IMG/VR virus record: IMGVR_UViG_3300025543_005580
Span: 47,990-111,989 of that record
Origin: a virus
DNA length: 64,000 nucleotides
Reading direction: 5' to 3' (one strand)
Of this stretch, positions 3,610 through 51,988 are shown piece by piece; the stretch's first letter is position 1, and each line of letters opens with the position of its first letter. The notes under the pieces were generated by a model, which did not search any database, was not told the origin of the DNA, and was given only the letters and a program-made list of their open reading frames with translations. A program made the position numbers and the translations under genes.

Positions 3610-3618
3610 ATTCGTTTA

Positions 3619-16666: not shown

Positions 16667-16670
16667 TGAT

Positions 16671-16697: not shown

Positions 16698-16720
16698 AAA
16701 AATAATTTTATTTTTTTATT

Positions 16721-23601: not shown

Positions 23602-25260
23602 CTAGATAGTATCTAAACCAGCTACATAGATTTTACCATAGTACTCAGGACGTAACATCTTCTTAGCGTAACGAGTCATCAAACCTTTACGTGGAGTAAA
23701 CGTTTCTGGATCGTACACAAGAGGAGTCATGATTAATGGAATGTAAGGAGCAAATACAGCACCTGTTTCCAAGAATTGAGAACCTCTATATCCCATTAAC
23801 ATTAAGTTGTTAGTGAAATATGGATTTTTGTAAACTTTGTAACGGTTATTGATTGTACCAATTTTTTGTACACCAAATGCGTACTCACCTTGAGCAGCAT
23901 CACCGTTAGCGTTTGAAGCAAATCCTGGGATTGATTCCAAGATAGTAGCTACTGTTGGAGAAGTAACAATAAAGTTAGCACCACCTCTAAGAGTTAATTG
24001 GTGAATTTTATTGCTCAATTTCTGCATTTTAGTACCTAAAGTTTGGAACCACTCACCTTGAGAGTTGTAGAAACCAGTTTGTGCTACAGTTGTTGGGAAA
24101 TCGAAACTTGAACCATTCCAAACACCGTTGTTTTTAGCTGTCCAGTACTCAGTACCTGCAGCAGCATCAGCGATTAACATATCTAAGATTTCCAAATCAA
24201 TTTCCATTGAAATGTACTCACTCATGATATTTGTTAATTCAGCTTCAGCATCGATGTTTTGGTATGCAGCTAAATCTTGAGCGAACTCAGGAGTCCATAC
24301 TGCTTTCAATTTCTTGGTTTTAGCAGTAATAGCTTGTGATTGCATTTTAACGTTAATTTCTGGAATAACGATGTTAGTCGCAGATAAATCGTTAGGAGAT
24401 GCGTAACCTGGAAGTGCTTGGTCAGCTTCAAAATCACCACGGTTAATATCTGTAGTTAACTTGTTGAAGTATACAGAAGCGGGGTTAAACGTAGGCTGTA
24501 CAGATTGAGATACGAAGAACTCAAGATCAGTACCGTTAGTAGCAACTCTAGTTAAGTCTGAAAGGTTTTCAGCTAAAGTTACATCTGATGAAGAGATAAC
24601 AAATGCAGCAACACCATCTAAATCAGCATTAGCTGGGGCAGCAACAGTTACTTTCCAAATTTCACCTGCAACAAAAGAAGCAGAATATGCATCGTTTACA
24701 TCGATATCTTTGTAATCAGCAGAAACAGCAACAGTTACAGAACCTGTAAGGATAGAAGCTGTGAACTGGTTAGTTGAATAAGCAAAACGACCAGCACCGT
24801 ATAAACCACCTTCAGCTGCAGGAGTTGAGAATGGATAAGAACCAGCAGCGTTACGATCACCATAAAGTGACTCACCAACTGCGAAAGGAGTTTTAGCATT
24901 TCCGTATTGGAAATCTAAGAAGAACACTAGACCAGAAGGCATGTTCATAGGTTGAACAGAAACGAATTCTTTAGCTACGATAGTACCGAATACTTTTCTT
25001 ACTAAAGGTAAAGCAATACCAGCCCAGTTTTCACCTTCAGTACCTGAAGTGAAACCAGAGTTAGTAGAGATTACGTTAGTTTCTGTTACTAATTGTTTTG
25101 CTTGGTTTTCGAGCATCAAAGACATATTGTTCTTCTCAACTTCACCAAGACCTTCAAGTAGTCCTGTTTTAGACCACTTACCTGCTAATTTAGCAGCGTC
25201 AGACTGTAGGTTCTTCCATGAACCAGCAGCAGACTCGAGTAATGAATTTACTTGTGACAT
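23602..25260 (-). CDS. gp23: Major capsid protein, T4 gp23-like
   Basis: VSVQPMNMPSGLVF, AKTKKLKAVWTPEFAQDL, IDAEAELTNIMSEYISMEID, FAPYIPL, TPRKGLMTRY. Confidence 0.95.
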   Translation of the reverse strand: MSQVNSLLESAAGSWKNLQSDAAKLAGKWSKTGLLEGLGEVEKNNMSLMLENQAKQLVTETNVISTNSGFTSGTEGENWAGIALPLVRKVFGTIVAKEFVSVQPMNMPSGLVFFLDFQYGNAKTPFAVGESLYGDRNAAGSYPFSTPAAEGGLYGAGRFAYSTNQFTASILTGSVTVAVSADYKDIDVNDAYSASFVAGEIWKVTVAAPANADLDGVAAFVISSSDVTLAENLSDLTRVATNGTDLEFFVSQSVQPTFNPASVYFNKLTTDINRGDFEADQALPGYASPNDLSATNIVIPEINVKMQSQAITAKTKKLKAVWTPEFAQDLAAYQNIDAEAELTNIMSEYISMEIDLEILDMLIADAAAGTEYWTAKNNGVWNGSSFDFPTTVAQTGFYNSQGEWFQTLGTKMQKLSNKIHQLTLRGGANFIVTSPTVATILESIPGFASNANGDAAQGEYAFGVQKIGTINNRYKVYKNPYFTNNLMLMGYRGSQFLETGAVFAPYIPLIMTPLVYDPETFTPRKGLMTRYAKKMLRPEYYGKIYVAGLDTI

Positions 25261-26608: not shown

Positions 26609-27208
26609 TTAAATTACCGGACAAGTGCCATTAGCACACAGTATTTCCGATAATATTGTATTTACTTTTAAGTATTTATCTACTTGAACTTCTTGTCCTT
26701 CTTTAATCATATGCATGTATGATCCTGGGTTTGATGGGGTGGAAACAAAATCCCAACATAATAATTCGAAATCGTCTTGGACTTCTAATACACCATTTCT
26801 ATCCTCTAATGAACCCATACCTCGTGATGACACACCAACTTGTACGTTATTTTCAATTAATGCTTTAAGAATATTTCCTGATGTTGTAGGTAGTACTTCA
26901 ATTTTACCCATTACTTGATCTCCATCCCACCACATATCTCTAATAATATGGGATACATTTTTAAGATTGATGATAGAGGATTCTGGGTGGTCTAATTCAC
27001 CTGTTGCTCTATTTTCTTTTACAAGTACTCTGTATTTATCGATTTCACGTTCCCATAGATCTTTTGAATAATAACGACCATTGCCATTTTTTACTTCAGC
27101 AGTCGCTAAGATACCTTCAACTAATGGGTTACCTGATGGGGCTACCGATTCAGTTAAGCTAACTGGTTTAGCATTAAATGCTTGGGTTTCTATGAGGACC
27201 TGTTTCAT
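26609..27208 (-). CDS. gp21: Prohead protease, T4 gp21-like
   Basis: KNGNGRYY, GELDHP, VSHII, GVSSRGMGS, WDFVSTPS. Confidence 0.93.
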   Translation of the reverse strand: MKQVLIETQAFNAKPVSLTESVAPSGNPLVEGILATAEVKNGNGRYYSKDLWEREIDKYRVLVKENRATGELDHPESSIINLKNVSHIIRDMWWDGDQVMGKIEVLPTTSGNILKALIENNVQVGVSSRGMGSLEDRNGVLEVQDDFELLCWDFVSTPSNPGSYMHMIKEGQEVQVDKYLKVNTILSEILCANGTCPVI

Positions 27209-27821: not shown

Positions 27822-27832
27822 GATTATAAATA

Positions 27833-29651: not shown

Positions 29652-29682
29652 TCCCTAGGATTTTATTATAAATATATAAAAA

Positions 29683-31566: not shown

Positions 31567-31593
31567 GTTATATATATTATATCCTATAAATAT

Positions 31594-33165
31594 TTAAAGA
31601 AGCCACTTAATGTCCTCTTTCCCTCCATAAGGGTTATCAATTTGGTAAGGGTTACTTCCATTTTTAGTTCCGTATGCACCAACATACGTAGTTTTATTCA
31701 TACCTCCTAGGGTAGCTCTAGTCATATCGTGGGAATGTTGTTGGAATTTGAGTGATGTATCTCTTAAATACATCCCTATACCAAAAGCCATTACTAAATC
31801 ATCATTATAACCTGATTGTGCTTCTGGTCTACCATTTCTCCAGATAAATACTTTCATTTCTTCTAACAAACGTTTGGAACGAATTGTTACTGATCTATCA
31901 CCAACATATTCTCTAAATTTGTTTACAACTAATGGTCTTGATCTCATAGACATAGTAAATCCAGGGGTCATATCACTATTACCCTCAAATACTTTAAGAT
32001 AAGCATCTGCAGTAAATTGGTCTGATTTAGGGGAATGGTATAAATTTGAATAACCACGTTCAATAATTGAATCAATTGTAGCCCAACCAATTGAAGCGTT
32101 TTCTACAGCTAACATTGCATTATTATATTCGGATCCTAAACCAACTAAAAAATAACCAAATTCTTTAGGAGACATCTGTCCCCTATATTCACCTACTTGT
32201 GTATTAGTTGCAATATCAATTATATGTGCTGTTGAAAAATCTTTACCATCTCCACGAGCAACATCTGCGGTGATCATATATTCTCTAGAATAATCAGCTG
32301 CTTCCCAAATCCATAAGTTTTGATCTACACCTCGTCTTTCTAATGGATCTTGGATTGTTGTTTCTTTTAAAAATTCAATCCATTCATTATAGAATACAAC
32401 ATCTCCTGATGTACTAAAATCACAATCACATTCTTGTGCAGCCATTCTAGGATCACCTAGTAATTCATCTTGTCTATCTCTCCATGCTTGGTCCCTTTCA
32501 GGGTGAACATACCAGGGTAGTTTAATAGGAATAAAGTCATTTTCTTTATTTTCAGCTGATACCCATGTTTTGTGGAACCAATTACCCGTACCATAAGGAG
32601 TAGATAATACAATAGCACCACCACCAGTTGCTAGGGTTTGTTGAGCTGAGGCCCATATTTCACCAATTTGATCAATAAATGCTGCCTCATCAATTAACAA
32701 CAAGGAAACGGCTTCTGATCTACCAGCATCACTACTTGCAGATGTTGCTTTTATTTGTGAGCCATTATTTAATCTAAGTGATAATTTATTATTTTCATCA
32801 GCTGGTATTTTAAGCCAAGAAGGTAAGTTATCATACATAAACTTAACCTTAGTAACCATATTACGAGCTGTTTCTTGCTTTGTCGCAATACAAAGAATAT
32901 TTTTATCCTTTTGGAATAACATCATCCATAAAGAATAACCTGCTGATAATGTTGAGATACCTAACTGTCTTGATTTTAAAATAATCGAGTATGGGTTATC
33001 TCTAAATAAATGTAATGTTTTTTCTTGGAAGGGGTATAGATTAAATAATACTCTACCACGTTGTGGGTGTTGAATATTACAATATTTTTTCATAAAATGA
33101 GCTGGGTCTTGAGCACATTTTAAGTATTCTTGTCTAATTATCGATTTTAAATCTTGATCTGCCAT
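31594..33165 (-). CDS. gp17: Terminase large subunit, T4 gp17-like
   Basis: LKSRQLGIST Walker A, LLLIDEAAF Walker B, STPYG, ADVARGDGKDFS, NDDLVMA. Confidence 0.95.
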   Translation of the reverse strand: MADQDLKSIIRQEYLKCAQDPAHFMKKYCNIQHPQRGRVLFNLYPFQEKTLHLFRDNPYSIILKSRQLGISTLSAGYSLWMMLFQKDKNILCIATKQETARNMVTKVKFMYDNLPSWLKIPADENNKLSLRLNNGSQIKATSASSDAGRSEAVSLLLIDEAAFIDQIGEIWASAQQTLATGGGAIVLSTPYGTGNWFHKTWVSAENKENDFIPIKLPWYVHPERDQAWRDRQDELLGDPRMAAQECDCDFSTSGDVVFYNEWIEFLKETTIQDPLERRGVDQNLWIWEAADYSREYMITADVARGDGKDFSTAHIIDIATNTQVGEYRGQMSPKEFGYFLVGLGSEYNNAMLAVENASIGWATIDSIIERGYSNLYHSPKSDQFTADAYLKVFEGNSDMTPGFTMSMRSRPLVVNKFREYVGDRSVTIRSKRLLEEMKVFIWRNGRPEAQSGYNDDLVMAFGIGMYLRDTSLKFQQHSHDMTRATLGGMNKTTYVGAYGTKNGSNPYQIDNPYGGKEDIKWLL

Positions 33166-37535: not shown

Positions 37536-37838
37536 TTACTCTTTCCAAATTTTTATTATTAATTTTCCTTCTCCTTTTATAACACGATGCCATTCGTGTT
37601 TTGGAATAAATATAGGCACATTCATTGAAGTTGGTAATTGGTCTTCTAACTGTATTTGCCAATCTGTTTTACCTATAATCTCAATTGTTCTATCTTCATC
37701 ATCACGATGCCACATAAGTTCAATTGGGTCTATATTTTCACTAAATTCCCTAATTGTATATTTGTTGTTGATTTCTATATCAACATAAGGTCTACCAGAA
37801 ACCTCCGAAATTTGATTTGAGTCCGAGTAATTTTGCAT
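37536..37838 (-). CDS. Small cupin-fold protein (start uncertain; ATG at 37838 overlaps the upstream gene)
   Basis: ELMWHRDDEDR...WQIQL...IFIPKHEWHRVIKG. Confidence 0.7.
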   Translation of the reverse strand: MQNYSDSNQISEVSGRPYVDIEINNKYTIREFSENIDPIELMWHRDDEDRTIEIIGKTDWQIQLEDQLPTSMNVPIFIPKHEWHRVIKGEGKLIIKIWKE

Positions 37839-38619
37839 AACGTGGTAAGCGACAAGACCAATATCCTGCCTTTGTTTTATCCTTTTTAGTTGAACATTTA
37901 TGACGTGCCGCAAATGCATTACGTGCTTTTTTATCGTTGATTTTAGCTCTTAAACCACCTGAACCGAAACGTACTGTTTTAATTTTCTTGGTTTTAGGAT
38001 CTTTAACATAAACCTTATATGCTTTACCTCCTGAAGAGTCACGCATTGGTTTATTTAATTTTTTATTGTCGTTTTTGGCTTCTTTAAGTACAAACTTATC
38101 CACCCAAACATCGTGGGTTAATCTATATAATACTTTGTCTGGTATTCTATCTGTGTATATTTTTATTACACCTTCAGTACCACTATGTCTAGTATGATTG
38201 ATATTCATATCTTGCAATTTATCAATCATAAGGTCATAATTTTCAGGTCTAACTTTTAATAGAGCATATTTTCTATCATCTTCTCCACCTTCTTCATATG
38301 TTCCTTCGTCTAACATAGGAAAATCTAATGGTACTTTTTTACCTTCAAACATGCCATAATGACCTAAATCTGTTTCTGTTAGAACAGCTAAATCATCTTC
38401 ATGAGTAATCTCTAAAATATTACGAGAATATAAAGAACGAGCTTCAGCCCATAAGTTAAAGTAACTATCCGAACCAGCACGATATAAGTGTTCTGTTAGC
38501 GGTTTATTAGCGTCCATATGGTATTTTAAACCTTCAGACAATATAGCACGTGGAGCTAAACTTTCGTTGAGCATTAACGTTGATTTTGTATCGCAAGTAT
38601 TACATCCGCAGTCGCACAT
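37792..38619 (-). CDS. Putative internal head protein with basic Cys-containing C-terminal domain
   Basis: LNE/LSE/LDE/LKE-delimited modules; KVYVKDPKT...VRFG...ARHKC...YWSC domain. Confidence 0.65.
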   Translation of the reverse strand: MCDCGCNTCDTKSTLMLNESLAPRAILSEGLKYHMDANKPLTEHLYRAGSDSYFNLWAEARSLYSRNILEITHEDDLAVLTETDLGHYGMFEGKKVPLDFPMLDEGTYEEGGEDDRKYALLKVRPENYDLMIDKLQDMNINHTRHSGTEGVIKIYTDRIPDKVLYRLTHDVWVDKFVLKEAKNDNKKLNKPMRDSSGGKAYKVYVKDPKTKKIKTVRFGSGGLRAKINDKKARNAFAARHKCSTKKDKTKAGYWSCRLPRYAKLLGLKSNFGGFW

Positions 38620-39830: not shown

Positions 39831-40124
39831 TTATTTTACTATTACTTTAAATAAACCTGGGTGTTCTTTTTCGAAATATTTAGCTTGATTATAGCTACGA
39901 CCAAAAACAAATTCATCTAATTCATCTGCATCAGTATATGTCGTAACATCTACTTCACCATCTTCTATTTCATCTTCAGTACCAAATTCATATGGAGAAT
40001 CTGCTAATTCACCTGACTCAACGTCAAAAGCTATTTCTGGGGTTAGAAGTTCAATGTGGTAATCCACTTCTTCTTCAAATAAGCGGCCTTCAGCTAAATA
40101 TTTTTTTAAATTGAAATTGTTCAT
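39831..40124 (-). CDS. Leader-bearing putative head cargo protein (97 aa, acidic)
   Basis: N-terminus MNNFNLKKYLAEGRLFEE. Confidence 0.7.
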   Translation of the reverse strand: MNNFNLKKYLAEGRLFEEEVDYHIELLTPEIAFDVESGELADSPYEFGTEDEIEDGEVDVTTYTDADELDEFVFGRSYNQAKYFEKEHPGLFKVIVK

Positions 40125-40152
40125 TGTTTTATTTTTTTATTTTAATTTTATT

Positions 40153-40683
40153 TTAGATGATATAATACAAATCGTCTTTTAACATTTTCCTCATTTCATC
40201 TTTACTGAATTGAGGGATTGGTTTTCCATTAGCATCCATTTTAAATGCAGGAAGGAATTCTCTTCCATCTTCATCAGATAATTGTGGTATAGCATAAATT
40301 TCAATATCACCATTACTATGGATTTCTACATACCCCTCATCTCCAACAGCATACATACCAGGTTTAACCATTTGAGCTACCATATCAAAATCGTAGGGAT
40401 AATCATTTTCTTCAGCAAATTCTTTTTCGTATACATTAGAATTAAAGCTAAAATTATTATAAAATTTATTAAATTCTTCTTCGTTCCAAGGGCCTGATTG
40501 GTTATAGCCATATATATCATCATTTACTCCATCATAATATCCTGCACCACCTGAACCTACTCCCCCTAAAAGACCATCATCAAATCTAAATCCTGCTTTT
40601 ACGAGTACATCTTCAATGTCTCTTAGTTCTTCTTTTAATAAGCGACCTTCGGCTAAATATTTTTTTAAATCAAAGTTATCCAT
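40153..40683 (-). CDS. Leader-bearing putative head cargo protein (176 aa)
   Basis: N-terminus MDNFDLKKYLAEGRLLKE. Confidence 0.7.
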   Translation of the reverse strand: MDNFDLKKYLAEGRLLKEELRDIEDVLVKAGFRFDDGLLGGVGSGGAGYYDGVNDDIYGYNQSGPWNEEEFNKFYNNFSFNSNVYEKEFAEENDYPYDFDMVAQMVKPGMYAVGDEGYVEIHSNGDIEIYAIPQLSDEDGREFLPAFKMDANGKPIPQFSKDEMRKMLKDDLYYII

Positions 40684-40715
40684 TTTATTTTTATTTTATT
40701 TCCTTTTATTTTATT

Positions 40716-41273
40716 TTATTCGCTTGCTAAATCCATAGCATATTGTTCAACTTCATCGGCATCATACCCAAAATCTTCAACATCTTCTATAAATTCTGCT
40801 TTACCATTAGTAAGTATATTAGCTAATACAGTACCTGCTTCTCCTAAAGCATACTCAAAATCTTCCATTTTACTAAGATCCATTATAGCAGATTTAAAAC
40901 TTTTTTTCTGTATGGGGGTAAGAAAAATTGGTTTTGATTCTTCTTTTTGTTTTTGAATTGGTTGAGATGGTTGAGATGGTGGAGTAAGTTTTTGTAAATT
41001 TAAATCGTTATCCCAAGTTAATTCATAATCCATTAATTTTCCTGTATTAGTTTCCGCTGTAACATTAGCCTGAATTGCTTTATGCTGTATCTTGTTGTTT
41101 TTGGAAGATGTAACCCTAATAGATTGTATAGGATCTAATCCGTTTTGTTCATTATATGTTGATATTATTGGGAATGCCATTTTTTCAATTTCCTCCATAC
41201 CAACATTCACAAAGTTTTCTTCTTCAAATAAGCGACCTTCAGCTAAATATTTTTTTAAATCAAAGTTGTTCAT
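40716..41273 (-). CDS. Leader-bearing putative head cargo protein (185 aa)
   Basis: N-terminus MNNFDLKKYLAEGRLFEE. Confidence 0.7.
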   Translation of the reverse strand: MNNFDLKKYLAEGRLFEEENFVNVGMEEIEKMAFPIISTYNEQNGLDPIQSIRVTSSKNNKIQHKAIQANVTAETNTGKLMDYELTWDNDLNLQKLTPPSQPSQPIQKQKEESKPIFLTPIQKKSFKSAIMDLSKMEDFEYALGEAGTVLANILTNGKAEFIEDVEDFGYDADEVEQYAMDLASE

Positions 41274-41292
41274 TTTATTTTATTATTTTATT

Positions 41293-41814
41293 TTATACTT
41301 CTATATCTGTTGTATCGTCAACTTCTACATCTATTTCTTCAGTATCACTACCTTCTCCTGGTGATGAGGTTGTTGATGCGGTATCTGATGCTTCTAAAGC
41401 TGCTTCATCTCCCATTTCAGCATCGCTGTTACCATAAGATAACATACGAGCTATAGCTTCAATAGCTCTTTCTTCCTCATTTAAATTAAGTAAATAATAT
41501 TTTTTACCTTCAATTTTAGCAATCCAACTACGAACTGCCCAAATTAAATAAAATACTTCATCATTTGCTAGTACAATTCTAAATGTAGTAGGTTTTGGAG
41601 CTACCCATTGGATATCTTTAACGAATGTTTCAAATTGATCCGTTAGCATATCAACTAATATTCTCTTTAGTTCTGGGAATTTTAAGAGCATTGGAAATTT
41701 TTCAATTTCTAAATCTATAGTGGAATTACCCCCATCCAAATCAACGAATGATCCTGGTTTGTATACTTGGCTTACAAGTCCTTTGATTTTATCTCTTAAT
41801 TCTGATTTAGTCAT
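41293..41814 (-). CDS. Hypothetical protein (MTKSELRDKIK leader, acidic tail)
   Basis: Clean ORF in the head-cargo block. Confidence 0.65.
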   Translation of the reverse strand: MTKSELRDKIKGLVSQVYKPGSFVDLDGGNSTIDLEIEKFPMLLKFPELKRILVDMLTDQFETFVKDIQWVAPKPTTFRIVLANDEVFYLIWAVRSWIAKIEGKKYYLLNLNEEERAIEAIARMLSYGNSDAEMGDEAALEASDTASTTSSPGEGSDTEEIDVEVDDTTDIEV

Positions 41815-43157
41815 TATTTAGACTTTAATTTTTCTGCTAATCTTTTAGCAATTTTTTCGGCTTTACTTAAATCGCCTTTATTCATTGCTTTTCTAGCTTG
41901 TTGGAGTTGATAAGTTTTAGATATATCTCCTTTATGTTTATTCAATGCCTTTTGAATAGCAGAAGCTAACATATCAGCTTTACCTGGGGTTTCTTCGTTT
42001 ATTTCAATATCATCAACAACATCAACTTCCATTTCAGGGGTGATATCATCCATTCTATCTACTACAGCATCAATTGCTGGTTCTTTTAGTTCAAAATCTA
42101 AGTAATGCTTAGCACCTACAATAGCTGATTTAGCATTTGAGATTTTTGATTGCCACCAATGTGGTAAATCAACTTCTCCTTTACCTTCAAAATCATCCAT
42201 CATTTGGTATAATTCCATAGCATATTTTCCAATACGATATAGATCACCTTTTAACATATGAGGTTCGTTATCTTGATGACCAAGATCCATATCTTCTTGC
42301 ATCATGTCCTCATCTTCATCTTCTTCCTCACCGTATTCTTCAATTTCGTCTACGATTGAAGCAATTGTAGTATCGTATCTGTTTGAGCTAGAACCTAAAT
42401 CGAAAGCACCATATGCGTCTCCTTTACTAAGGTAAGATGGGAAGTTTTGTGCGATAATATCTCTGGCTTGATCTCCTAATACTTGGAGTTCATCTAAGAT
42501 ATTTCTTAGCTCCATAAGAGCTTCTACTTTATCTTCATTTAATGCATTTTCACTTAAAAATTTAGCTTTTGCTGCTTTAAAATCACCTTTGTATAGTTGT
42601 TTAACTATTTTACGTCCTAAAGTTTCTAATTGATCTAAATCTAAAGAATGAGGTTTACCAAATCCTTTTAAATATGCCGCTCCAATGTCTCCATACTCTG
42701 CAGGATCAATTACATCTTCAACACCTTCTTTTAGATCACCTAATTCCTTAGCTGCTCTAACAAGATCATTTCTTGCTTCATCTTCACCAACACCTCTGTA
42801 TTTGGCTATCTTTTTAATAGCCATTTTAGCAATGCGTTTTTCTTCAGATGAAGAACTTTCATCTAGGTTTTTTTCAATTGCCGCGCCACGTTTTTCTTCG
42901 TAATCTGAAAGTTTACCATCTTTATTTAGATCGGCTGCTTTAGGATTTTTAAGAGAATCTTTAATCATCTCTCTAACTTTATCTTGATTCATATTTTCAG
43001 TTTTTTTCTTAGCCATATTAGTTGCGCGACCATACATTACTGCTTCCGCGTCCTTACCATAACGTTTAACGAAGGACCTCTTATTTGTTTTGAGGTCCAT
43101 TATCGCATCTTCTCGATTTTCGAGTTCTTGTTTAGTAAGTTCGCGTTCGTTAAGCAT
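41814..43157 (-). CDS. Modular putative internal head protein (likely start MLNERE at 43157)
   Basis: Modules bounded by LDE/LKE/LSE/LNE/INE. The ORF-track 5' extension overlaps the Hc1-like gene. Confidence 0.65.
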   Translation of the reverse strand: MLNERELTKQELENREDAIMDLKTNKRSFVKRYGKDAEAVMYGRATNMAKKKTENMNQDKVREMIKDSLKNPKAADLNKDGKLSDYEEKRGAAIEKNLDESSSSEEKRIAKMAIKKIAKYRGVGEDEARNDLVRAAKELGDLKEGVEDVIDPAEYGDIGAAYLKGFGKPHSLDLDQLETLGRKIVKQLYKGDFKAAKAKFLSENALNEDKVEALMELRNILDELQVLGDQARDIIAQNFPSYLSKGDAYGAFDLGSSSNRYDTTIASIVDEIEEYGEEEDEDEDMMQEDMDLGHQDNEPHMLKGDLYRIGKYAMELYQMMDDFEGKGEVDLPHWWQSKISNAKSAIVGAKHYLDFELKEPAIDAVVDRMDDITPEMEVDVVDDIEINEETPGKADMLASAIQKALNKHKGDISKTYQLQQARKAMNKGDLSKAEKIAKRLAEKLKSK

Positions 43158-43167
43158 GTGTTTTTTT

Positions 43168-43323
43168 TTACTTGTGTCCTCTTTTGAAGTCAGCGGATAA
43201 GTTTTTGATTTTGTTAGCGGCAGATCTACATCTTCCTTTAGCTGCAGCTGATGTTTTGTCAATTTCTGCTTCAATCAATAATACTTGTTCTTTGATTCCT
43301 TCTAATAATTCTTTAGTTTCCAT
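43168..43323 (-). CDS. Histone H1-like (Hc1-type) small basic protein, 51 aa; not in the ORF track
   Basis: METKELLEGIKEQVLLIEAEIDKTSAAAKGRCRSAANKIKNLSADFKRGHK with an A-rich start; resembles the KAAGTRARKAS pattern of Bacteroidota Hc1-like proteins. Confidence 0.6.
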   Translation of the reverse strand: METKELLEGIKEQVLLIEAEIDKTSAAAKGRCRSAANKIKNLSADFKRGHK

Positions 43324-43370
43324 AATTTTTATTGTTTTATAAATTTAATTGTTTGTTTATTTTTATTTTA

Positions 43371-44687
43371 TTATAATAATTTGTTTATCAAGCCATCGTT
43401 ACCTCTACGAACTGTAGATTCGTTAATTGACTCATTATTATCTACTTTAGAAACGTGTGCTCTAGTAAAGTAAGTAATTGTATTACCAATTTGATCAGTT
43501 AGTTTTTCATCTCCTAATTTTTCAGCTTCTTCTTGAGCTTTCATTAGTAAACTTTGAACTGCGATTTCATCTTCACCTTCACCTGGCATACTACCTTTTA
43601 CGTCAATATCGGTTTCAACTGATTCATCATCAACTTCAACATCTTTTTCAATGTCAACATCAACTTTTTCGTTGTCTTCAACATCTACTTCTTCTGCTTC
43701 ATACATATCATCTCCTTCATCCATATCTTCTATTTCGGCTACTGGGTCATATGCATCTGTAGTATCATTGATTGTGATTTCAGCTTCAGCCATCATAGCT
43801 GCTTTAATCATTTCTTTTAACTCTGATTTTTTCATTTTAGTTTTATTTTCGTTTAATTCAGTAGGCATTTCTTCATCTACTATTTCTTCTTTGGTATATG
43901 ATTTTCCACACATTTTTTCGTATAGTTTTTCCATCTTGGCTTTTCGTCTTTCAAGATCTTTAACTTCACGCTGCATTTCTTTCATTTTTTTCTTATCAAC
44001 TAATTGCGATAAGTTATCATCCTCAGTAACCATTGAAATTCTTTGGTTTTTAGATTCGATCATTTCATCAATAGCTGCAATTTTAGCTTCTAAAGCAACA
44101 ACTTGTGATTGTTTTTCGATTTCAGCTAATTTGCTGTCTACTGTTTCTTTTTTCATTTTATTTGATTTTGTTTTTTTAATTTCTTCTTCTTTAATTTCTT
44201 CCATGTAGTCGCTCATTTCTTTTCTGCGCTCCATATAATCGGTTTCTACATCATCAGTCATACCAAGATCCGCTTTGGAATCTTCGGCTGAAATGATTTC
44301 AATTTCGCCTTCAGGGGTAATATAAGCTACTTTAGCATTTCTTGAAGCAGCATTAGTAACTAAATAACCATCACCTTCAGGACGGATTACAAATGAACCA
44401 CCAGCATAATCACCTAAATAATTAGCAATACCGAATCCTCTACTGTCTTCCCAATCATCACCTGGTGTGTTAGGTCCTGCTTCTACATCTAAATCAAAAC
44501 CACCACCACGAGGATCAGCTTCAATTGAGTTAGGTGTAATTATATATTTAAGATCTAATTCATTATCTTCAGCTGTAAATTCATCAGCAACTGCTTGAGC
44601 TACTTTTTGAACTAAATCATCAGTAAGTTCTACTTCGTTTAGTAGCTTACCTTCAGCTAAATATTTTTTATAATTAAAATTATCCAT
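43371..44687 (-). CDS. Leader-bearing modular putative head protein (438 aa)
   Basis: MDNFNYKKYLAEGKLLNE leader and internal MKKSELKEMIK; late motif at 44704-44711. Confidence 0.7.
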   Translation of the reverse strand: MDNFNYKKYLAEGKLLNEVELTDDLVQKVAQAVADEFTAEDNELDLKYIITPNSIEADPRGGGFDLDVEAGPNTPGDDWEDSRGFGIANYLGDYAGGSFVIRPEGDGYLVTNAASRNAKVAYITPEGEIEIISAEDSKADLGMTDDVETDYMERRKEMSDYMEEIKEEEIKKTKSNKMKKETVDSKLAEIEKQSQVVALEAKIAAIDEMIESKNQRISMVTEDDNLSQLVDKKKMKEMQREVKDLERRKAKMEKLYEKMCGKSYTKEEIVDEEMPTELNENKTKMKKSELKEMIKAAMMAEAEITINDTTDAYDPVAEIEDMDEGDDMYEAEEVDVEDNEKVDVDIEKDVEVDDESVETDIDVKGSMPGEGEDEIAVQSLLMKAQEEAEKLGDEKLTDQIGNTITYFTRAHVSKVDNNESINESTVRRGNDGLINKLL

Positions 44688-44714
44688 TCCTAATATATTT
44701 ATGTATAAATATGG

Positions 44715-45008
44715 TTATTTTTTAGACTGATACGTCCCTTTCTTGTATTTTGCAGATTTTGTGTTTTTAACAAATTGTTTACCTTTTTTATCACCACGGA
44801 CTTTTTTAGCTACTGTAGCTTTTCTTTCTGCCTTTGTTAAGGATTGAGCTTTTTTTCTAGGCAAACATCTAGTAGTTGCTTTACCTTTTTTCATAGTACC
44901 ACAAGGGCCAGTAATGTTACCAGCCGTATCAATTCGAACCCAATCCTCTTTTTTAAACCAATCGCGAAGGGATTCTGAAATTATTTCTTGTAGTCTTTCG
45001 TTTGTCAT
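44715..45008 (-). CDS. Small basic putative head protein (97 aa)
   Basis: IISE followed by SLRDWFKKEDWV...PCG...CLP...ERK basic domain. Confidence 0.65.
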   Translation of the reverse strand: MTNERLQEIISESLRDWFKKEDWVRIDTAGNITGPCGTMKKGKATTRCLPRKKAQSLTKAERKATVAKKVRGDKKGKQFVKNTKSAKYKKGTYQSKK

Positions 45009-45589
45009 TATGAAACTGCGTCTTCAACAGCACCTTTTAAAATAGTATTTACTTCAATACCTTTAATTGCTGCTTTTAAACTATATATTCCACCTTTAAG
45101 ATAACTTGCTTTTTTAAGATAAGCAACAGCTTCACCTCCTGCTTGACCTGCCATTAAGAAGATTATAACAGCATATAATACATCGGATATCCATTTTTGT
45201 TTTTTGGTGTCTTTAGTAAAGATACTTACTATTCGTTTAATTGGAGCTTTAAATGCTTCTTCATTTTTATGAGTAAAATCATAAATTTTCTTGGCGGCCT
45301 CTTCACCTTTACCAAAATTATGTTTAGCAAATTGTTTTTTAGCAAATTTAGAAAGCATATTAGCTATTGTATTAGATAATAAAATATATCCTATAATACT
45401 AACAGTAATTGCTACCTCATTGATTTCTTTATCGGACTTTTGAATTTCTTCTTTATGGTCTTCTAATTCATCTTTAATTTCATCTGCTAGATCATCTGCA
45501 AATGCATCTAATTCAGCACCAAATTGATCTTCTTCACTTTCAAATAGCTTGCCTTCAGCTAAATATTTTCTTAAATCGAAATTATCCAT
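45008..45589 (-). CDS. Leader-bearing putative head cargo protein with hydrophobic helices (193 aa)
   Basis: MDNFDLRKYLAEGKLFE leader; INE followed by VAITVSIIGYILLS; VLYAVIIFLMAG. Confidence 0.7.
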   Translation of the reverse strand: MDNFDLRKYLAEGKLFESEEDQFGAELDAFADDLADEIKDELEDHKEEIQKSDKEINEVAITVSIIGYILLSNTIANMLSKFAKKQFAKHNFGKGEEAAKKIYDFTHKNEEAFKAPIKRIVSIFTKDTKKQKWISDVLYAVIIFLMAGQAGGEAVAYLKKASYLKGGIYSLKAAIKGIEVNTILKGAVEDAVS

Positions 45590-45619
45590 TTTATTTTTTC
45601 TTTAAGGGGTTTAGTTGAA

Positions 45620-46015
45620 TTAACTATTTTCCCAGTCTTTTTTTCTTCTATCTACTTCTTGGTAAAAAGCTTCTTCTCCTTTTTCTTTCCAACTTAAATA
45701 ATCAGCATATTTTTCAGGAAAACTAACTATCCATTTATTAATAGCATCATAAGCCTTTTTAACAGATTCAGGTGAAGGATTTATTCTAGGAACAGAGACA
45801 TCAAATTGGCCATCCCACCATCCTGTCATATCATCATTCCAATCGATTCTGAATACATCTGGAAATCGCATAGTTCTAAGTTTTGCTCCTGTTTTGATTT
45901 CTAAATCTTTAGCCATTTGTTCAAAGTCATTAAACATTTCTTTTCTTGAAGGAGTAGTTTCTTGTTCAAATAATCTACCTTCAGCTATATATTTTTTTAA
46001 ATCGAATGTATCCAT
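45620..46015 (-). CDS. Leader-bearing putative head cargo protein (131 aa; likely start 46015)
   Basis: MDTFDLKKYIAEGRLFE begins right after the upstream stop codon. Confidence 0.7.
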   Translation of the reverse strand: MDTFDLKKYIAEGRLFEQETTPSRKEMFNDFEQMAKDLEIKTGAKLRTMRFPDVFRIDWNDDMTGWWDGQFDVSVPRINPSPESVKKAYDAINKWIVSFPEKYADYLSWKEKGEEAFYQEVDRRKKDWENS

Positions 46016-46016
46016 T

Positions 46017-47801
46017 TTATTTTTTCTTTTTTCTTCCAGACATTTGTCCTTTACATACTTTAACTGCACGACCTGATAAATAAGCAGATGATTTTTCTCC
46101 TGCTGCTTTACGTCTTTTGATATATGCCTTGCCTTTAGGACATAATTCTTCTTCAATTACACCTTCACCTAATTTAATAGTTTCGGCTAATTCTTGAGCC
46201 ACTGATTTTTTCTTTTCATCACTACTATGACCAAAGGTTTTATGAACTAGTTTATCTAATTCTTTGTGAAATTCATTTTCCTCGTCTTCTGTAGCTTCAT
46301 TTACACCATCAAAATCTCTTTGTTTTAAAGCAGCCATAATAGCGTATACAGCATCTTGTTCGCTATAATCGTATCGTTTAGCCATTGCCTTAATAAAACG
46401 ACTTACTGCTTTAGATACTTCAGGATTAAGTGATTCTTTTATTTCACCTAACATGTTTGGATCCATATTAATGAAATCATCTGATACAGCAAATACTTGG
46501 ACAACTCCATTTTCTTTATCTACTATGTCGATGTCTTCTAAATCATATTCTGCTTTCAAATCTCTAGCTACATCACCAGCTAATCGCATAGCTTCAGCAG
46601 CACTTTCTCTTCGGATTTGACCAGTCATTGTTTCTTTACCTAATGCAATTGATGAACCACCTGGTCCTAAATCATATTCGATATTAACATATAGGAAGTT
46701 AGGGAATTTTTTATCTTTAACATAGCTAGGCATAGATACTCTTGCTCTAGAAGCTTCAGCTATTGATTTACCTCGTTGTTTAGCTTTTCTAACTAATGAA
46801 TTCCAATTAGATAAATCATATTCATCCCATGGTTCAACCTCCATTTTATTGAATGTTTTTTCTTGACCTTCTACTGGTTTGCTATTTAGGTAATGTGTTT
46901 CGTTTTGAGTTAATTCAAAGAATCTATCTACTTGATCTTGGGTAGGCATTTTGCTTTCACCTTCAGCTATTGCTTGATCATAGGTCATTTCTTTTCTACC
47001 TGATAGTTTAGCTATTACTTTATCAATACGATTTAATTTACTACCATATTCATCAGCAATTGGCCCACCTTCTGGTTCAGCTTCTTGCTCCATATCACGC
47101 ATTAATTGTGCTCTTTCTTTTTTGAGGAATGCTATTTTTTTAGCATTATCAAAGAATTTATCGTTACCATCATCACCAGCATTAGCAGCTCTCATTTTAG
47201 CTAATTTATCTTTAGCAGCTCTCATTTTCATAAGAACTGGGTCATTGATGTCCATTTCTTCTAAATTGCCTGCTTGAAGTTCGTACCCCCAACGCTTAAG
47301 TTTAGCTTCTAATTCAGCTTTATCTTTAGCTTCAAAATCGAATGAATCGTTTACACCATAGTAACCCATACCTCTTTTATAGATTTTAGTTTCACCAGCA
47401 TCACCTTTAGGATCATCATAGATAGCAATTTCACCATCGGTAAATGTACCTTCGTTTACTGATTCTTCATAGTAATCTTTATGACCACCGTTTACTCTAA
47501 AAATATCGCTATATTCTCTTCTTGAATAATTTGATGAATCACCTGAAATAGTGATACCTGAATTTCCACCCCAATTCAAACCTGCTGAATCTAGTCTTTG
47601 ACCAATGTCATCAACAATTTCATCTGGGGAATCTTGGCCTGTAATAATATCAATTTCATCCCATTTTGGAACTAACATTATAGTGAATGGGTAGGTTGAT
47701 TTGCTTAGTATTTTAACTACTTTATCAAAATCTTCTTTTGTTACCTTATTTTCTTCTAAAGGTTTAGAAAAGAATTCTTGTATTTTTTTAATATCTTCCA
47801 T
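46017..47801 (-). CDS. Modular polyprotein-like putative head protein (594 aa)
   Basis: About 8 short segments separated by LEE/VNE/IAE/IKE sites; basic ELCPKGKAY...VCKG C-terminal module. Confidence 0.7.
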   Translation of the reverse strand: MEDIKKIQEFFSKPLEENKVTKEDFDKVVKILSKSTYPFTIMLVPKWDEIDIITGQDSPDEIVDDIGQRLDSAGLNWGGNSGITISGDSSNYSRREYSDIFRVNGGHKDYYEESVNEGTFTDGEIAIYDDPKGDAGETKIYKRGMGYYGVNDSFDFEAKDKAELEAKLKRWGYELQAGNLEEMDINDPVLMKMRAAKDKLAKMRAANAGDDGNDKFFDNAKKIAFLKKERAQLMRDMEQEAEPEGGPIADEYGSKLNRIDKVIAKLSGRKEMTYDQAIAEGESKMPTQDQVDRFFELTQNETHYLNSKPVEGQEKTFNKMEVEPWDEYDLSNWNSLVRKAKQRGKSIAEASRARVSMPSYVKDKKFPNFLYVNIEYDLGPGGSSIALGKETMTGQIRRESAAEAMRLAGDVARDLKAEYDLEDIDIVDKENGVVQVFAVSDDFINMDPNMLGEIKESLNPEVSKAVSRFIKAMAKRYDYSEQDAVYAIMAALKQRDFDGVNEATEDEENEFHKELDKLVHKTFGHSSDEKKKSVAQELAETIKLGEGVIEEELCPKGKAYIKRRKAAGEKSSAYLSGRAVKVCKGQMSGRKKKK

Positions 47802-48238
47802 TATTTAAATGCGTTTATTGCTCTTTCGTCTTTAAAATGATCTTGGACTGCTTTTAATGCTACCTCTCTATCTTCAGGGGATAAAGCATTGAATCTAGCT
47901 AATATTCTATCGTTATTGTCTTTTGCTCTTCTATACTGACCACCATCATCTATGTACTCATAGTAAGCATCGTATGATTTAAAGTATTTTAAAAAATCAT
48001 CTAATGATGATAAATCTTCGTTTTCATTAATAGATTCATTCATGCCTAATTCAGCATGTAACACTTCCATAAAAGGACCAAAATTATGAGAGCCATACTC
48101 GTCTTTAAGAATAGCGGCTACACCAATTGCAAAATCTTTGTATGATAAATTTTCATCAACAGAAGCAATAGCATTATCTATCGCTTTTGCTACTTCATTT
48201 TCTACAAGATCAGAATAATATTCTTTAAGGTTTTTCAT
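47801..48238 (-). CDS. Putative internal head protein (145 aa)
   Basis: MKNLKEYYSDLVE start and internal MNESINE junction. Confidence 0.6.
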   Translation of the reverse strand: MKNLKEYYSDLVENEVAKAIDNAIASVDENLSYKDFAIGVAAILKDEYGSHNFGPFMEVLHAELGMNESINENEDLSSLDDFLKYFKSYDAYYEYIDDGGQYRRAKDNNDRILARFNALSPEDREVALKAVQDHFKDERAINAFK

Positions 48239-48449
48239 TGTTATTTTTTTTAGTTCTTCTACGTTTTTTTGGTTTAGGTATTTCTTTTACTACCTTTTCT
48301 AATGATGATTCACCACTCATTTTAATTTCTACTTGTGGTTCTTCTGTGGTTACTCTAGTAACTTGTACTGGGTTAGTATCTCGGATTACTTTTTGGTTGC
48401 CTTTAGGGGCATGAAAAGTTCTACTATTTTCAAATTTACCTAATTCCAT
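48225..48449 (-). CDS. Hypothetical protein with basic tail (74 aa)
   Basis: Tightly packed ORF. Confidence 0.5.
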   Translation of the reverse strand: MELGKFENSRTFHAPKGNQKVIRDTNPVQVTRVTTEEPQVEIKMSGESSLEKVVKEIPKPKKRRRTKKNNNEKP

Positions 48450-49066
48450 TATTTTTTAGTATTTAGGTATTCGTCAAGTAATGTACCGATAACACCTGCT
48501 TTCTGTCGTATAAATATCCACTCTTCCTTAGATAATTTATGTTGTTGTTGAAAATCTACACAAAGAACGCCAATAAAACGATCTTTTAAATCGTCTAAAG
48601 CAAGTAAATAATAAGATTGGGCACCATAAGGTTCAGCAACGGCTCCTAACCCATAAGTTTCACCATTAGCATCCGATACGGCTATTTCACCATTTTTATA
48701 AAGTTCAGACATTGCTTTTGGAAATAATGATACTGGGATGTTTTGGAAGTTATGTTGTGCTGCTAGAATATTTGGTCCTACTTTTTCATAGAACATAGAA
48801 AATTTCTGGATTGATTTACCTGTTGGATAAAAATGTCCACCATTATGAAATTGGGTAACCCATACTCGGTCGCAATTTAATTCATCCATAATAACATCAA
48901 GTTGTTCATCAACTAAGTTATTTAGTTCTATTGCTTCATGTACAGGATTTTTTTCCTCTTTTTTCTTTCCAAAATGATTTTTTGCCCATTCAACAGCAAT
49001 TGGCCCAAATACAGCTGTTATTAAAGCAACGATTATTGTCGAAAGCATCATTATTGTAGTTTCCAT
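48449..49066 (-). CDS. Single-TM protein with GAF-like domain (holin T-like candidate)
   Basis: N-terminal hydrophobic helix; CDRVWVTQFHNGG...FIGVLCVDF pattern. Confidence 0.55.
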   Translation of the reverse strand: METTIMMLSTIIVALITAVFGPIAVEWAKNHFGKKKEEKNPVHEAIELNNLVDEQLDVIMDELNCDRVWVTQFHNGGHFYPTGKSIQKFSMFYEKVGPNILAAQHNFQNIPVSLFPKAMSELYKNGEIAVSDANGETYGLGAVAEPYGAQSYYLLALDDLKDRFIGVLCVDFQQQHKLSKEEWIFIRQKAGVIGTLLDEYLNTKK

Positions 49067-49067
49067 C

Positions 49068-49640
49068 TTATTTTTTAAGTGATTGTAAAAATTTAATTGT
49101 TTCTTCTTTACTTTCTAGCATTTTTATTTTATTAGAACCAACCCAGCTTTCTATATCACCAGCTTCTGTTATAAAATCTTCGTTAGATTGATTTAGCATT
49201 TCGTCAAACCAAACCTCAAATTCTTTTGTTAAATTATCAACGTTATCGTTTATAAATACGTTATTATATTCTTCCCATAAACCCTTTAATTTTAAATCAG
49301 CTTCAAAGCTAACTTGACATGTTAAACATCTTTTAAATTGTAAATAAAAACGTTTATCTGCTTGCTTTTTCATTAAATTATTACATGAAGGACAAAATAA
49401 AGGCATATGTATTTCCTTTTTAGCATTATCCAGTTTAGTGATGTTTTGTTTAATACCGTTTTTAATAGTCCAAGTACGACCATCAGATTCCCAAACATCA
49501 CCTTCTTCATGAAATTCTTCTACTTTAGTATAACCAACACCTTGTACATTACGAGCCCCATGCTTGCCTGTCATTAGGTTACGAAGACGTTGTACGTCTT
49601 TTTCTTTAAATTCTTTCTTTAAAACTGATTCTTTACTCAT
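49068..49640 (-). CDS. Hypothetical zinc-finger protein (likely start MSKES at 49640)
   Basis: CPSC...CLTC; EGDVWE..GRTWTIKNG. Confidence 0.65.
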   Translation of the reverse strand: MSKESVLKKEFKEKDVQRLRNLMTGKHGARNVQGVGYTKVEEFHEEGDVWESDGRTWTIKNGIKQNITKLDNAKKEIHMPLFCPSCNNLMKKQADKRFYLQFKRCLTCQVSFEADLKLKGLWEEYNNVFINDNVDNLTKEFEVWFDEMLNQSNEDFITEAGDIESWVGSNKIKMLESKEETIKFLQSLKK

Positions 49641-51988
49641 AAACCTAATTTTTTTAATTCTTTTATTGTTTGTTCTGTAGATATAAATAATATACCTATT
49701 CCTCCTGCTGCCTTCCATTGGTCAATATTTGAAGGACGATCATCGATTAATATATTATTACCATCAGCATAGTTTTTCTTATTATAAGAATTAGCTAATA
49801 TTAATTTAGTTCCTGGGAGGTTATTTCTAACCCATAAACGTTTACCTAAACGAGAGGAATTTGAACGGGATGGTGAAGATAATAACATTGGGTTATTTGG
49901 TTTAATATACTCCCATAATTGTTTACCATTAGGCATCCAAGGCATACCAACCCAAAATCCAACACCATTTTCATTGTCAATTAAATTCCAAAATGCTTCT
50001 TTGCCATTTTTTTCTTCATATTCACGAGGAGAAATACCACCAGATGCTTTTTCAAATTGCTTATCAAAGTCAACTAATACACCATCCATATCACAATAGA
50101 TAGTATATTTTTGATCATTTACTTCATTCATAACTTTACTTTTATATTCGAATATGGGTAAAGATAATGCCTTAGCTCGGTTTCTCCAAATTTTTAATAT
50201 GTTTTCTCTTTCCTCAGCATTAATAGGTTGAGTATCAAGATAATCATTGATTACATCAATATATGGTTTTTTCGATTTTTTAGCTTTAAAGTATAAACCT
50301 TGAAGCATAGCATCTATTTCTTTGGGTAATCTAAAGTAATCTGCTTTAGGTAGTAAATCCAAATTAATTAAATCTCTAATTGTTTGATCATCATCCATTT
50401 GCTTACTAGGTCTTACTAGTTTTGGATCATCACTATCTACTCCACCTTTAACATTTTCTCCATCTTGAGTTAAATGCTCAAGCTCGTGTCTTACAACATC
50501 TTTAATATCAAATGATACTTTTTGCCAGTCTGGGTTTTTAGGTATTTTAAATTTAACTGATAGTAAGGGGGTTATTTCATTTCCTTTAGTATCAAATCCA
50601 GCATTTGCTCCTCCATCCACATTATACTCATCATCTGTAATTTCTACTACGCCTTCAAAATCAAAATAAAATTCTTCAGATGGAATATCATGTTCATCAT
50701 CTGGGTGGTCTACTCTAAATTCAAAGTCGCCTTTTTTATCTCCTCTATCGTGAATATCTTTAAATGCTTCAAATGCAATTTTAGATAATTGGTTAGTTAG
50801 TGTATCATAACGACCTTCGTTTAATGATTCTTCTAAACCTTGGGCTAATTCACGAGCGTATTGATTTAAACCAAATGGGTCTTTATTTTTTTTCTCTTCA
50901 AGTGGGGTATTATTATGCTCACATTTATGGCATGTAAATAAATCATCCCCACCATCTGCTATTTTCCAACTCCAGCCACAATTGTCACATTCGATTTTAT
51001 CGCCTATAATTGCTTCATTTAAGCTATCAGTCCAATTTCTAAATGTCATTGTACCTTTCAAATTAGCTTCAGCTTCAATATCATTTAAGTTATCGTCTTC
51101 CTGTGTATTAGTTGTAGTAATATCACTCAATCTACCCTCTAAATTTTGAATGTGATGTACCATTTCATGTGAGAATGAACGTACTATATCTTTAGGATGT
51201 CGTCCCTCAGTATATAGCACGATTGTACTTGTGTTTGGGTTATAATACGCTGTTTTACCGAAAAAATCACGTGCGTTTTCGCTATCACCGTTAATAAATT
51301 CAACTGTGGGTAAGGGATCAATATTATATCCCTTATCTCTCATATAATTAGTTAATTCGATTATTTTATTTTTATAATCTATATCTTTAGAATATGAAGC
51401 ATTTTCGTTTAATGACTCCTTAACTACATCTTGTATGTAACCAAATATTTCTAATTTTTCATCATCAGTTAAATTTGATGGTAAAAATTTGTAGAATGAT
51501 TCTGGGGATTGCTTTGCTGCTGATCTTGCTTTAGTACCACTAACATTGGCATCTGGAGTTTGGATTATTTTAACTTTAACATTTGGATATTTATCTTCTA
51601 CACCAGTTGTTCTTAAAGCAACATCTGTTAGATCATCTTCATTTCCTTGCCTAGCACCTATAATAAAGTAAACTACTTCTTCAGGATGGTTTTTTCCATA
51701 TCTTAAAATATCACCTATTGGTGCTTTTGATGGTTGTATTTCTACTTTTGATGGAAGATAATTTTTATATATATCCCATATCAACAAAGATTCTTCTTGA
51801 GTAATACCATTACGTTCTCCACTACCCACATAAATAATAAATTTATCTATTTCAGGGAAGTCAGATAGTGCTTTTTGTACTACTTCAAGATGTCCTTTTG
51901 TTGGTGGTTTGAAACCGCCACCATAAACAGCGGTTACCAAATTATCACCAACTAGTTCGGATATTAACGACTTAGTTAGTGAATTCAT
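49637..51988 (-). CDS. Multidomain protein: cytidylyltransferase-like NTase, HExxH domain, Zn ribbon, second HExxH domain, HAD 5'(3')-nucleotidase-like
   Basis: GGGFKPPTKGH...SGTKAR; SHEMVH; CDNC..CHKC; RHELEH..Q; IYCDMDGVLVDF...ILIDDR. Confidence 0.8.
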   Translation of the reverse strand: MNSLTKSLISELVGDNLVTAVYGGGFKPPTKGHLEVVQKALSDFPEIDKFIIYVGSGERNGITQEESLLIWDIYKNYLPSKVEIQPSKAPIGDILRYGKNHPEEVVYFIIGARQGNEDDLTDVALRTTGVEDKYPNVKVKIIQTPDANVSGTKARSAAKQSPESFYKFLPSNLTDDEKLEIFGYIQDVVKESLNENASYSKDIDYKNKIIELTNYMRDKGYNIDPLPTVEFINGDSENARDFFGKTAYYNPNTSTIVLYTEGRHPKDIVRSFSHEMVHHIQNLEGRLSDITTTNTQEDDNLNDIEAEANLKGTMTFRNWTDSLNEAIIGDKIECDNCGWSWKIADGGDDLFTCHKCEHNNTPLEEKKNKDPFGLNQYARELAQGLEESLNEGRYDTLTNQLSKIAFEAFKDIHDRGDKKGDFEFRVDHPDDEHDIPSEEFYFDFEGVVEITDDEYNVDGGANAGFDTKGNEITPLLSVKFKIPKNPDWQKVSFDIKDVVRHELEHLTQDGENVKGGVDSDDPKLVRPSKQMDDDQTIRDLINLDLLPKADYFRLPKEIDAMLQGLYFKAKKSKKPYIDVINDYLDTQPINAEERENILKIWRNRAKALSLPIFEYKSKVMNEVNDQKYTIYCDMDGVLVDFDKQFEKASGGISPREYEEKNGKEAFWNLIDNENGVGFWVGMPWMPNGKQLWEYIKPNNPMLLSSPSRSNSSRLGKRLWVRNNLPGTKLILANSYNKKNYADGNNILIDDRPSNIDQWKAAGGIGILFISTEQTIKELKKLGL

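Follow-up and report, generated by a model that had tools for sequence, protein, structure and literature searches.

The prohead protease of phage T4, gp21, has an established specificity for aliphatic-x-Glu, and in the T4 major capsid protein (MCP) gp23 the L-T-E/A cut after residue 65 takes off a 65-residue propeptide (the slash marks a cut or candidate cut here and below). The combination of a capsid-targeting sequence (CTS) with gp21 processing is textbook knowledge, known as an arrangement of one leader per cargo. The T4 CTS reads MKTYQEFIAE (10.1101/2021.01.19.427310); its residues 4 and 7 serve to target the protein, cutting requires residues 8 and 10, and Asp in place of the Glu before the cut blocks the processing (PMC9026906). 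Here we analyze the open reading frame (ORF) 46017-47801, on the minus strand of a 64,000-nucleotide (nt) window, which is the whole stretch of viral DNA studied (positions 47,990 to 111,989 of IMG/VR record IMGVR_UViG_3300025543_005580). From sequence comparison we consider it probable, at roughly 65%, that this ORF encodes a capsid-targeted precursor from which the prohead protease would release small internal head proteins.

The nearest parallels are the T4 internal proteins IPI, IPII, IPIII and Alt, which share with this locus a T4-type head, a gp21 homologue and a short leader, ending in aliphatic-x-Glu, on unrelated proteins. The predicted products are also small and partly basic, like the T4 internal proteins (about 8–21 kDa), and the repertoire varies among related phages in both cases (PMC3012670, PMC9026906). 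The leader of ORF 46017-47801 behaves like the T4 CTS in being common to proteins with differing cargo. However, T4 has one cargo per leader, whereas here about eight site-separated modules stand behind one leader and are exchanged between chains and between phages; the leader sequence is different, and there is no sequence homology between the two sets of proteins.

Three other described systems resemble the locus in part. In the inner-body and ejection proteins of phiKZ, 201phi2-1 and SPN3US, which gp175/gp245 process, the cuts likewise follow Glu in a short motif, and one protein often has several of them; paralogues share N-terminal sequences, and the propeptides are thought to target the prohead (PMC5694885, PMC9026906). 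In these giant phages, long propeptides (at least 100 amino acids, aa) are removed from one mature product at an S/A/G-x-E motif, whereas here the pieces between sites are conserved, folded (by prediction) and shuffled units, and the motif is L/I/V-x-E. The polyvalent proteins of Iyer et al. 2017 combine many unrelated domains per chain with virion-gene neighbors and highly variable architectures, as here, and delivery together with the DNA has been suggested for them, possibly followed by proteolytic release (PMC5512222). Unlike the chain studied here, they are defined by recognizable enzyme or DNA-binding domains, often with an embedded metallopeptidase, none of which was detected in ORF 46017-47801; the modules here are tiny, and their release would be by a trans-acting prohead protease at conserved joints. 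T4 gp22, gp67 and gp68 are also late head-cluster proteins with several L/I-x-E sites cut by gp21, and some of their peptides are retained in the head. Yet they are motif-rich and degraded to short peptides, whereas the ORF 46017-47801 protein is motif-free between joints 43–107 aa apart. Within the limited literature searched, no description of chains of this kind turned up.

ORF 46017-47801 is intact, with an ATG at 47801 and a stop at 46017-46019, and its product is 594 aa long. A first-pass annotation of the sequence had listed eight candidate cleavage sites dividing the protein into segments of 45–110 aa, and had proposed that the prohead protease matures it into separate small effectors. 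All eight sites are in place, with the Glu before the cut (P1; P2, P3 and P4 precede it, P2′ and P3′ follow the cut) at E17 (47751), E117 (47451), E182 (47256), E280 (46962), E349 (46755), E456 (46434), E502 (46296) and E551 (46149). The segments measure 43–107 aa, and the final one is, as described, basic with two Cys (C553, C582). The [LIVM]xE motif occurs 13 times in the protein (P1 = 9, 17, 117, 182, 280, 349, 453, 456, 502, 540, 546, 550 and 551), and all 13 copies lie at joints or in the leader. Module interiors, 520 residues in all, contain none, against 7.5 expected from shuffles made within each module (P ~5e-5).

To see how these borders relate to homology, we used a full HMMER scan of 1.84 billion representatives, which returned 1528 proteins at E ≤ 1e-3 (206 of them at E ≤ 1e-30), an IMG/VR search that gave 78 loci, and an alignment set of 149 metagenomic representatives with 349 aligned domain hits and 524 internal homology breakpoints. 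Near full-length matches to the protein were almost never seen among these relatives. The ends of the 349 aligned stretches peak at aa 115-120, 175-186, 265-288, 343-360, 445-462, 493-510 and 529-540. Of the 524 breakpoints, 48% lie no more than 6 aa from one of the eight sites; random positions give 17%, and none of 5000 random sets reached 48%. Seven of the eight predicted sites are true module borders. At the eighth, VIEE-551, the motif is conserved (90%) but the border lies elsewhere, the last homology boundary being at about aa 529-540 (LAE/T, P1 = 540).

The segments are also shuffled. Module order is changed in 42 of the 149 representatives, others drop or duplicate modules, and the joins in rearranged chains are exact to 1–2 residues. 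One chain runs leader+M1, M3-M4-M5, a second M4 and an end piece (P0004; modules are numbered M1 to M8 from the N-terminus), another M1, M5, M3 (P0009), and a third consists of leader+M1+M5 alone (P0057). The same exchange reaches the closest isolate, Flavobacterium phage vB_FspM_immuto (MCP identity 55%), whose 841-aa gp079 (L001:10840-13365) joins in one protein modules found in window ORFs 46017-47801, 41814-43274 and 41293-41814. Each gp079 module is motif-flanked and motif-free inside; the GHQDNEP module, for example, is bounded by VDE-296 and MNE-389, and further joints are predicted after aa 487, 532 and 698. The likeness that the first-pass annotation saw in ORF 41814-43157 holds in part: its 447-aa ATG-start product has conserved motifs at aa 4, 63, 100, 288 and 359, and the module right after MQE-288 is one that immuto has in another chain, but many unconserved motifs are present too.

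Across the aligned hits, [LIVM]xE is kept in 58–98% at P1 = 9, 17, 117, 182, 280, 349, 453/456, 502, 540 and 551. Per residue, the motif makes up 8.7% of joint zones and 0.24% of interiors, so that it is about 36 times rarer inside modules. A site logo built from 591 joint instances has L/I/V at P3 in 81% and E at P1 in 84%, a variable P2 (N, E, A, K, D) and a small residue at P4. Fixed P3 and P1 with a free P2 is the pattern of a protease recognition site, not of general or linker conservation, and on the evidence of these alignments the joint motif is under selection. Over the full length of the 149 representatives, unrelated parts included, gaps between motifs show an excess at 5–12 aa (double sites) and at 41–130 aa, and deficits at 13–40 aa and above 130 aa.

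The source phage is a distant T4-like myophage from freshwater, and its late region is the 31%-GC part of the window. It encodes the presumed cutting enzyme, a gp21-type prohead (head maturation) protease (26609-27208, minus strand; phrog_207, E = 1e-57) with 38% identity to T4 gp21. This protease aligns with T4 gp21 at the His motif (ELDHP), the Ser motif (GVSSRG) and an N-terminal L-I-E; LIE-9 of T4 gp21 is the proposed self-cleavage site (PMC9026906). The T4-type MCP of the Gp23 family (23602-25260) carries a maturation site V-T-E/T at aa 58-60 (25081..25089, minus strand), which aligns with L-T-E/A of T4 gp23 and V-S-E/A of immuto (alignment A1). With protease and MCP site both aligned, the enzyme and its expected aliphatic-x-Glu specificity are in place. 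Modularity, borders, hydrophobic-x-Glu joints of the type cut by gp21 and a gp21 homologue in the same phage support, in part, the earlier reading of the protein as a processed string of mini-domains.

The N-terminal leader, aa 1-17 (MEDIKKIQEFFSKPLEE; 47751..47801, minus strand), ends in L-E-E and is a candidate capsid-targeting propeptide. Its pattern M.D..KIQEFFSKPL.E is conserved in about 50 representatives, with a helix predicted at aa 4-12, and the motif is kept at E9 and E17 in 96–98% of them. Among 52 relatives, the residues matching L15-E16-E17 at the leader end have L at P3 in 94% and E at P1 in 98%. The leader is separable from what follows: at least 14 representatives have the leader region alone in common with the window protein (from aligned residues 1-22 to 1-45) and diverge beyond it. 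It is fused directly to M3 in L027 and L029 and to M8 in L025, while L036 has an additional 60-aa module, ending PLNE/G, inserted behind it. Because the motif stands at every joint and only there, and modules are swapped at the same places, we think it probable that the chain is taken into the capsid and cleaved into its pieces.

We modeled the protein with AlphaFold. A single-sequence model was useless (mean predicted local distance difference test score, pLDDT, 38), and a fragment alignment (A2) misplaced M4 and M5 fragments and was not used. The model built on alignment A3, made of 62 collinear relatives, reached a mean pLDDT of 72.9 with a predicted template modeling score (pTM) of 0.35. 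It contains confident mini-domains: M1 is alpha/beta, M3 a helical hairpin, M5 beta-beta-alpha-beta-beta, and M6 to M8 helical. The pLDDT drops below 50 at aa 112-115, 174-183, 278-283, 344-350, 501-504 and 544-550, which are the joints. Pfam and PHROG gave no family for the whole protein, Pfam gave no domain at E ≤ 0.001 for seven separate segments, and a Pfam search of whole and segments detected no peptidase domain. Foldseek with the A3-based model found no match in the PDB at E ≤ 0.001, and in BFVD only uncharacterized proteins of uncultured phages. For M5, the ESM Atlas gave no feature match (TM ≤ 0.47), and a profile built from the M5 alignment had no significant match in the PDB. A wide VIA-align search paired the M3 hairpin with generic hairpins at Z 7–8, which is noise for helical models, and barely tested the other modules.

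The modules, all on the minus strand, follow one another behind the leader. M1 (aa 18-117; 47451..47750) is the alpha/beta mini-domain, with pLDDT ~90 over aa 20-100, and ends ESVNE/G, VNE-117 being kept in 95% of aligned hits. It is internal and leaderless in P0013, P0020, P0033 and P0124, and forms a stand-alone 104-aa ORF behind another leader in L077. M2 (aa 118-182; 47256..47450) ends NLEE/M, a motif kept in 78%, and is a separate unit in P0144 (aligned residues 116-182), P0086 and P0148; it is modeled poorly because the alignment is shallow there. M3 (aa 183-280; 46962..47255), the helical hairpin, has a conserved loop EQEAEPEGGPIAD.YG and ends QAIAE/G. It stands behind at least seven different leaders or contexts, almost always with [LIVM]xE directly before it whatever precedes, and two ORFs (L032, L037) end exactly where it ends. 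M3 is homologous to aa 388-488 of immuto gp079, highly conserved and near-universal in the phage group.

M4 (aa 281-349; 46755..46961) ends KSIAE/A and is flanked by pLDDT below 50 at aa 278-283 and 344-350. It is matched separately (aligned residues 282-345) in ORFs with a Cys-rich leader (L006, L031, L038, L044), and occurs twice and out of order in P0004. M5 (aa 350-456; 46434..46754; alignment A4), the beta-beta-alpha-beta-beta mini-domain, has pLDDT 90–97 and ends LGE-IKE/S; it directly follows M1 in P0009, P0028 and P0057, and precedes M3 in many representatives. M6 (aa 457-502; 46296..46433) consists of two helices and ends DGVNE/A, a motif kept in 78%. It is a separate unit in P0016 (aligned residues 456-502) and P0146, and one metagenome contig diverges at 46295, next to its end. 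M7 with a spacer (aa 503-551; 46149..46295) is helical and carries the conserved LAE-540 and IEE-551, each kept in 90%. M8 (aa 552-594; 46020..46148) is a basic two-Cys peptide (LCPKGKAY...VKVCKG...KKKK). It is the C-terminal unit in most family members, with 82 domain ends at aligned residues 589-594, and is stand-alone or leader-fused in P0152 and L025. After the site at 551, L at P2′ is conserved in 98% and C at P3′ in 97%. M8 plausibly binds DNA and looks more like a DNA-binding internal peptide than an effector.

The gene lies among virion genes. A late-promoter-like motif, ATATTTATA (48509..48517, minus strand), sits 60 nt upstream of a run of abutting or overlapping genes from 48449 to 44715 that includes ORF 46017-47801. 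The window holds 12 copies of ATATTTATA, all on the minus (coding) strand, against 4.1 expected, and none of 100 shuffles reached 12. The other copies stand nearly all just upstream of virion genes (for example at 44704-44712, 31585-31593, 29667-29675 and 27825-27833), which makes ATATTTATA a candidate late promoter akin to T4's TATAAATA. The variable chains keep their place in more than 60 loci, where one strand carries in order the NMNAT chain described below, a Zn-ribbon ORF, the variable chains, and then the large terminase (TerL) and portal, which in the window are T4-type and lie at 31594-33165 and 29683-31566.

Two further ORFs of the head cluster, both on the minus strand, differ from this chain in motif density. 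ORF 28794-29651 has 16 [LIV]xE against 6.6 expected, most of them conserved, and ORF 25287-26480 has 21 against 14 expected. They look like scaffold or core proteins meant for shredding, with a pattern opposite to that of ORF 46017-47801. Elsewhere in the window, the minus-strand ORF 3619-16620 (4333 aa) and adjoining collagen-repeat ORFs lie within 1-18748, where GC is 40–47% against about 31% in the rest.

The region next to the gene, 39831..46015 on the minus strand, holds neighboring cargo genes with a second leader, MDNFDLKKYLAEG (class A), which opens ORFs 39831-40124, 40153-40683, 40716-41273, 43371-44687, 45008-45589 and 45620-46015, and one ORF elsewhere in the genome (C1:9044-9607), seven otherwise unrelated ORFs that begin MDNFDLKKYLAEG(R/K)L. 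The Y-L-A-E of MDNFDLKKYLAEG mirrors the F-I-A-E of T4. LAE-12 is present in all aligned relatives for five of the six class-A ORFs and in 9 of 16 for ORF 45008-45589. The five short class-A ORFs have 5 motifs beyond aa 20 against 14.4 expected (P = 0.001). The TTG start listed for ORF 45620-46156 is probably wrong, since the leader is opened by an ATG at 46015. An 88-nt DNA repeat is common to the six class-A copies of the window and includes about 30 nt upstream of the ATG; a search for direct repeats in the DNA found only this repeated leader region and nothing at the joints of ORF 46017-47801.

A Cys-rich leader of a third type (MCDCGCNTCDTK...LMLNE/S), which 46 loci conserve, opens the minus-strand ORF 37792-38619; relatives that begin with it have M4 (aligned residues 282-345) or M1-M3-like parts (67-236, 114-236). 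The neighboring minus-strand ORF 49637-51988 encodes a 783-aa chain with an NMNAT-like N-terminus, HEMVH and HELEH stretches, a CxxC ribbon and a nucleotidase-like C-terminal part. SLNE at aa 195, 325 and 391 of this chain is kept in 37 of 58, 34 of 43 and 30 of 31 relatives, and breakpoints pile up at 191-200, 321-330, 361-390 and 611-630. It looks like a second jointed chain, this one enzyme-bearing.

The stretch 44600-49100 is present in freshwater, marsh and aquatic metagenomes and in RNA libraries of several studies. Contigs from RNA libraries span ORF 46017-47801, but they may stem from DNA carry-over, and the contigs cannot tell transcription, strand or level. Some contig joints or loose ends (47458→47751, 47752, 46295) fall on module borders and others do not; these anecdotal cases hint at natural variants with swapped modules.

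Several points weigh against a capsid-targeted, protease-cut precursor. We infer cutting and packaging, for the ORF 46017-47801 protein as for every relative. The protein has no sequence similarity to T4 IPI, IPII, IPIII or Alt in Pfam or PHROG, and the likeness of its leader to the T4 CTS is loose (QEF, then L-x-E). Low model confidence is partly technical, as alignment A3 is thin at aa 118-180 and 500-530; over aa 118-157 the thin alignment is probably its cause. Many L-x-E motifs in folded proteins are left uncut by T4-type proteases, so the motif alone is no proof. The raw [LIV]xE count of the protein is at chance (13 against 10.2 in shuffles), and since it is unenriched we dropped the argument from counts and used placement in its stead.

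The leading alternative is an uncut multi-domain protein with flexible links, hub- or scaffold-like, in which hydrophobic-x-Glu is a habit of linkers or helix caps. In its favor, the raw motif count is at chance, and a low pTM with disordered-looking linkers is expected of any protein built as beads on a string. However, this explanation accounts neither for the purge of the motif from interiors (0 against 7.5 here, 0.24% against 8.7% per residue in relatives), nor for fixed P3 and P1 with a drifting P2, nor for the same motif at the MCP maturation site and the protease N-terminus. We regard it as unlikely.

A second alternative, which we rate slightly lower still, accepts cutting by the prohead protease and makes the protein an auxiliary core or scaffold component, like T4 gp22, gp67 and gp68, whose pieces help to build the prohead, are afterwards expelled or stay inside as inert peptides, and have no action in the host. 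The near-universal, highly conserved M3 fits assembly better than an arms race, the end piece is a basic peptide, and the neighboring head ORFs 25287-26480 and 28794-29651 are motif-rich like the T4 core proteins. Yet core proteins destined for removal are motif-rich and cut to short peptides, whereas the units here are motif-free over 43–107 aa; with folds predicted for them (pLDDT above 90 for M1 and M5), they should be too large to exit the shell. Rapid gain, loss and reordering of modules is moreover typical of accessory cargo and not of an assembly machine. The universality of M3 nevertheless makes a structural or assembly role for this module as likely as a host-directed one. The label of effectors given in the first-pass annotation gains no support from the data, and none of the modules could be matched to a known family or fold.

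Processing outside the capsid by another peptidase, with cytoplasmic, unpackaged products, is improbable: ORF 49637-51988 could supply the enzyme through HEMVH or HELEH, lies in the same conserved block and has conserved SLNE joints of its own, and embedded metallopeptidases have been proposed to process phage polyvalent proteins (PMC5512222), but Pfam detected no peptidase family in its HExxH stretches, the joint motif agrees both with the specificity of gp21-type enzymes and with the sites in the MCP and protease of this phage, and the conserved N-terminal leader would be left without a role.

For the precursor cut by the prohead protease, we infer targeting, cutting, retention and ejection, and any function of the pieces, along the following lines. 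The polyprotein would be made late, along with the head genes, and its 17-residue leader would dock it to the prohead scaffolding core, like the CTS of T4 internal proteins. Once activated, the gp21-type protease (26609-27208) would cut after the Glu of [L/I/V]-x-E at every joint. Besides the leader and a handful of short spacers, the cuts are expected to yield seven or eight pieces of 43–107 aa that are folded or basic. Free of [L/I/V]-x-E and for that reason spared, these pieces would survive and stay with the DNA inside the head, and would probably pass into the host alongside it.

We conclude that the chain is probably a variant of the T4 internal-protein scheme that differs in stringing multiple cargo units behind one leader. 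More tentatively, and with somewhat less than even confidence, we suggest that aquatic T4-like phages run a plug-in cargo system composed of a capsid-address leader and any number of motif-bounded modules. If so, a single gene would load a changeable, stoichiometric set of proteins into the head, and new sets would evolve by swaps at the joints. The design may also serve to load several proteins into phage capsids from one construct. A chain of this kind, its protease sites the one constant punctuation and its modules freely traded among phages, would offer a simple, sequence-only rule to predict which proteins a phage carries into its host, and would mark hundreds of small uncharacterized proteins as candidates for early host takeover or anti-defense. 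With a relative in culture (Flavobacterium phage immuto, gp079), this rule lends itself to a direct test. If the plug-in system is real, the family, which numbers more than 1500 representative clusters, would form a large reservoir of injected proteins predictable from sequence, anti-defense factors possibly among them.

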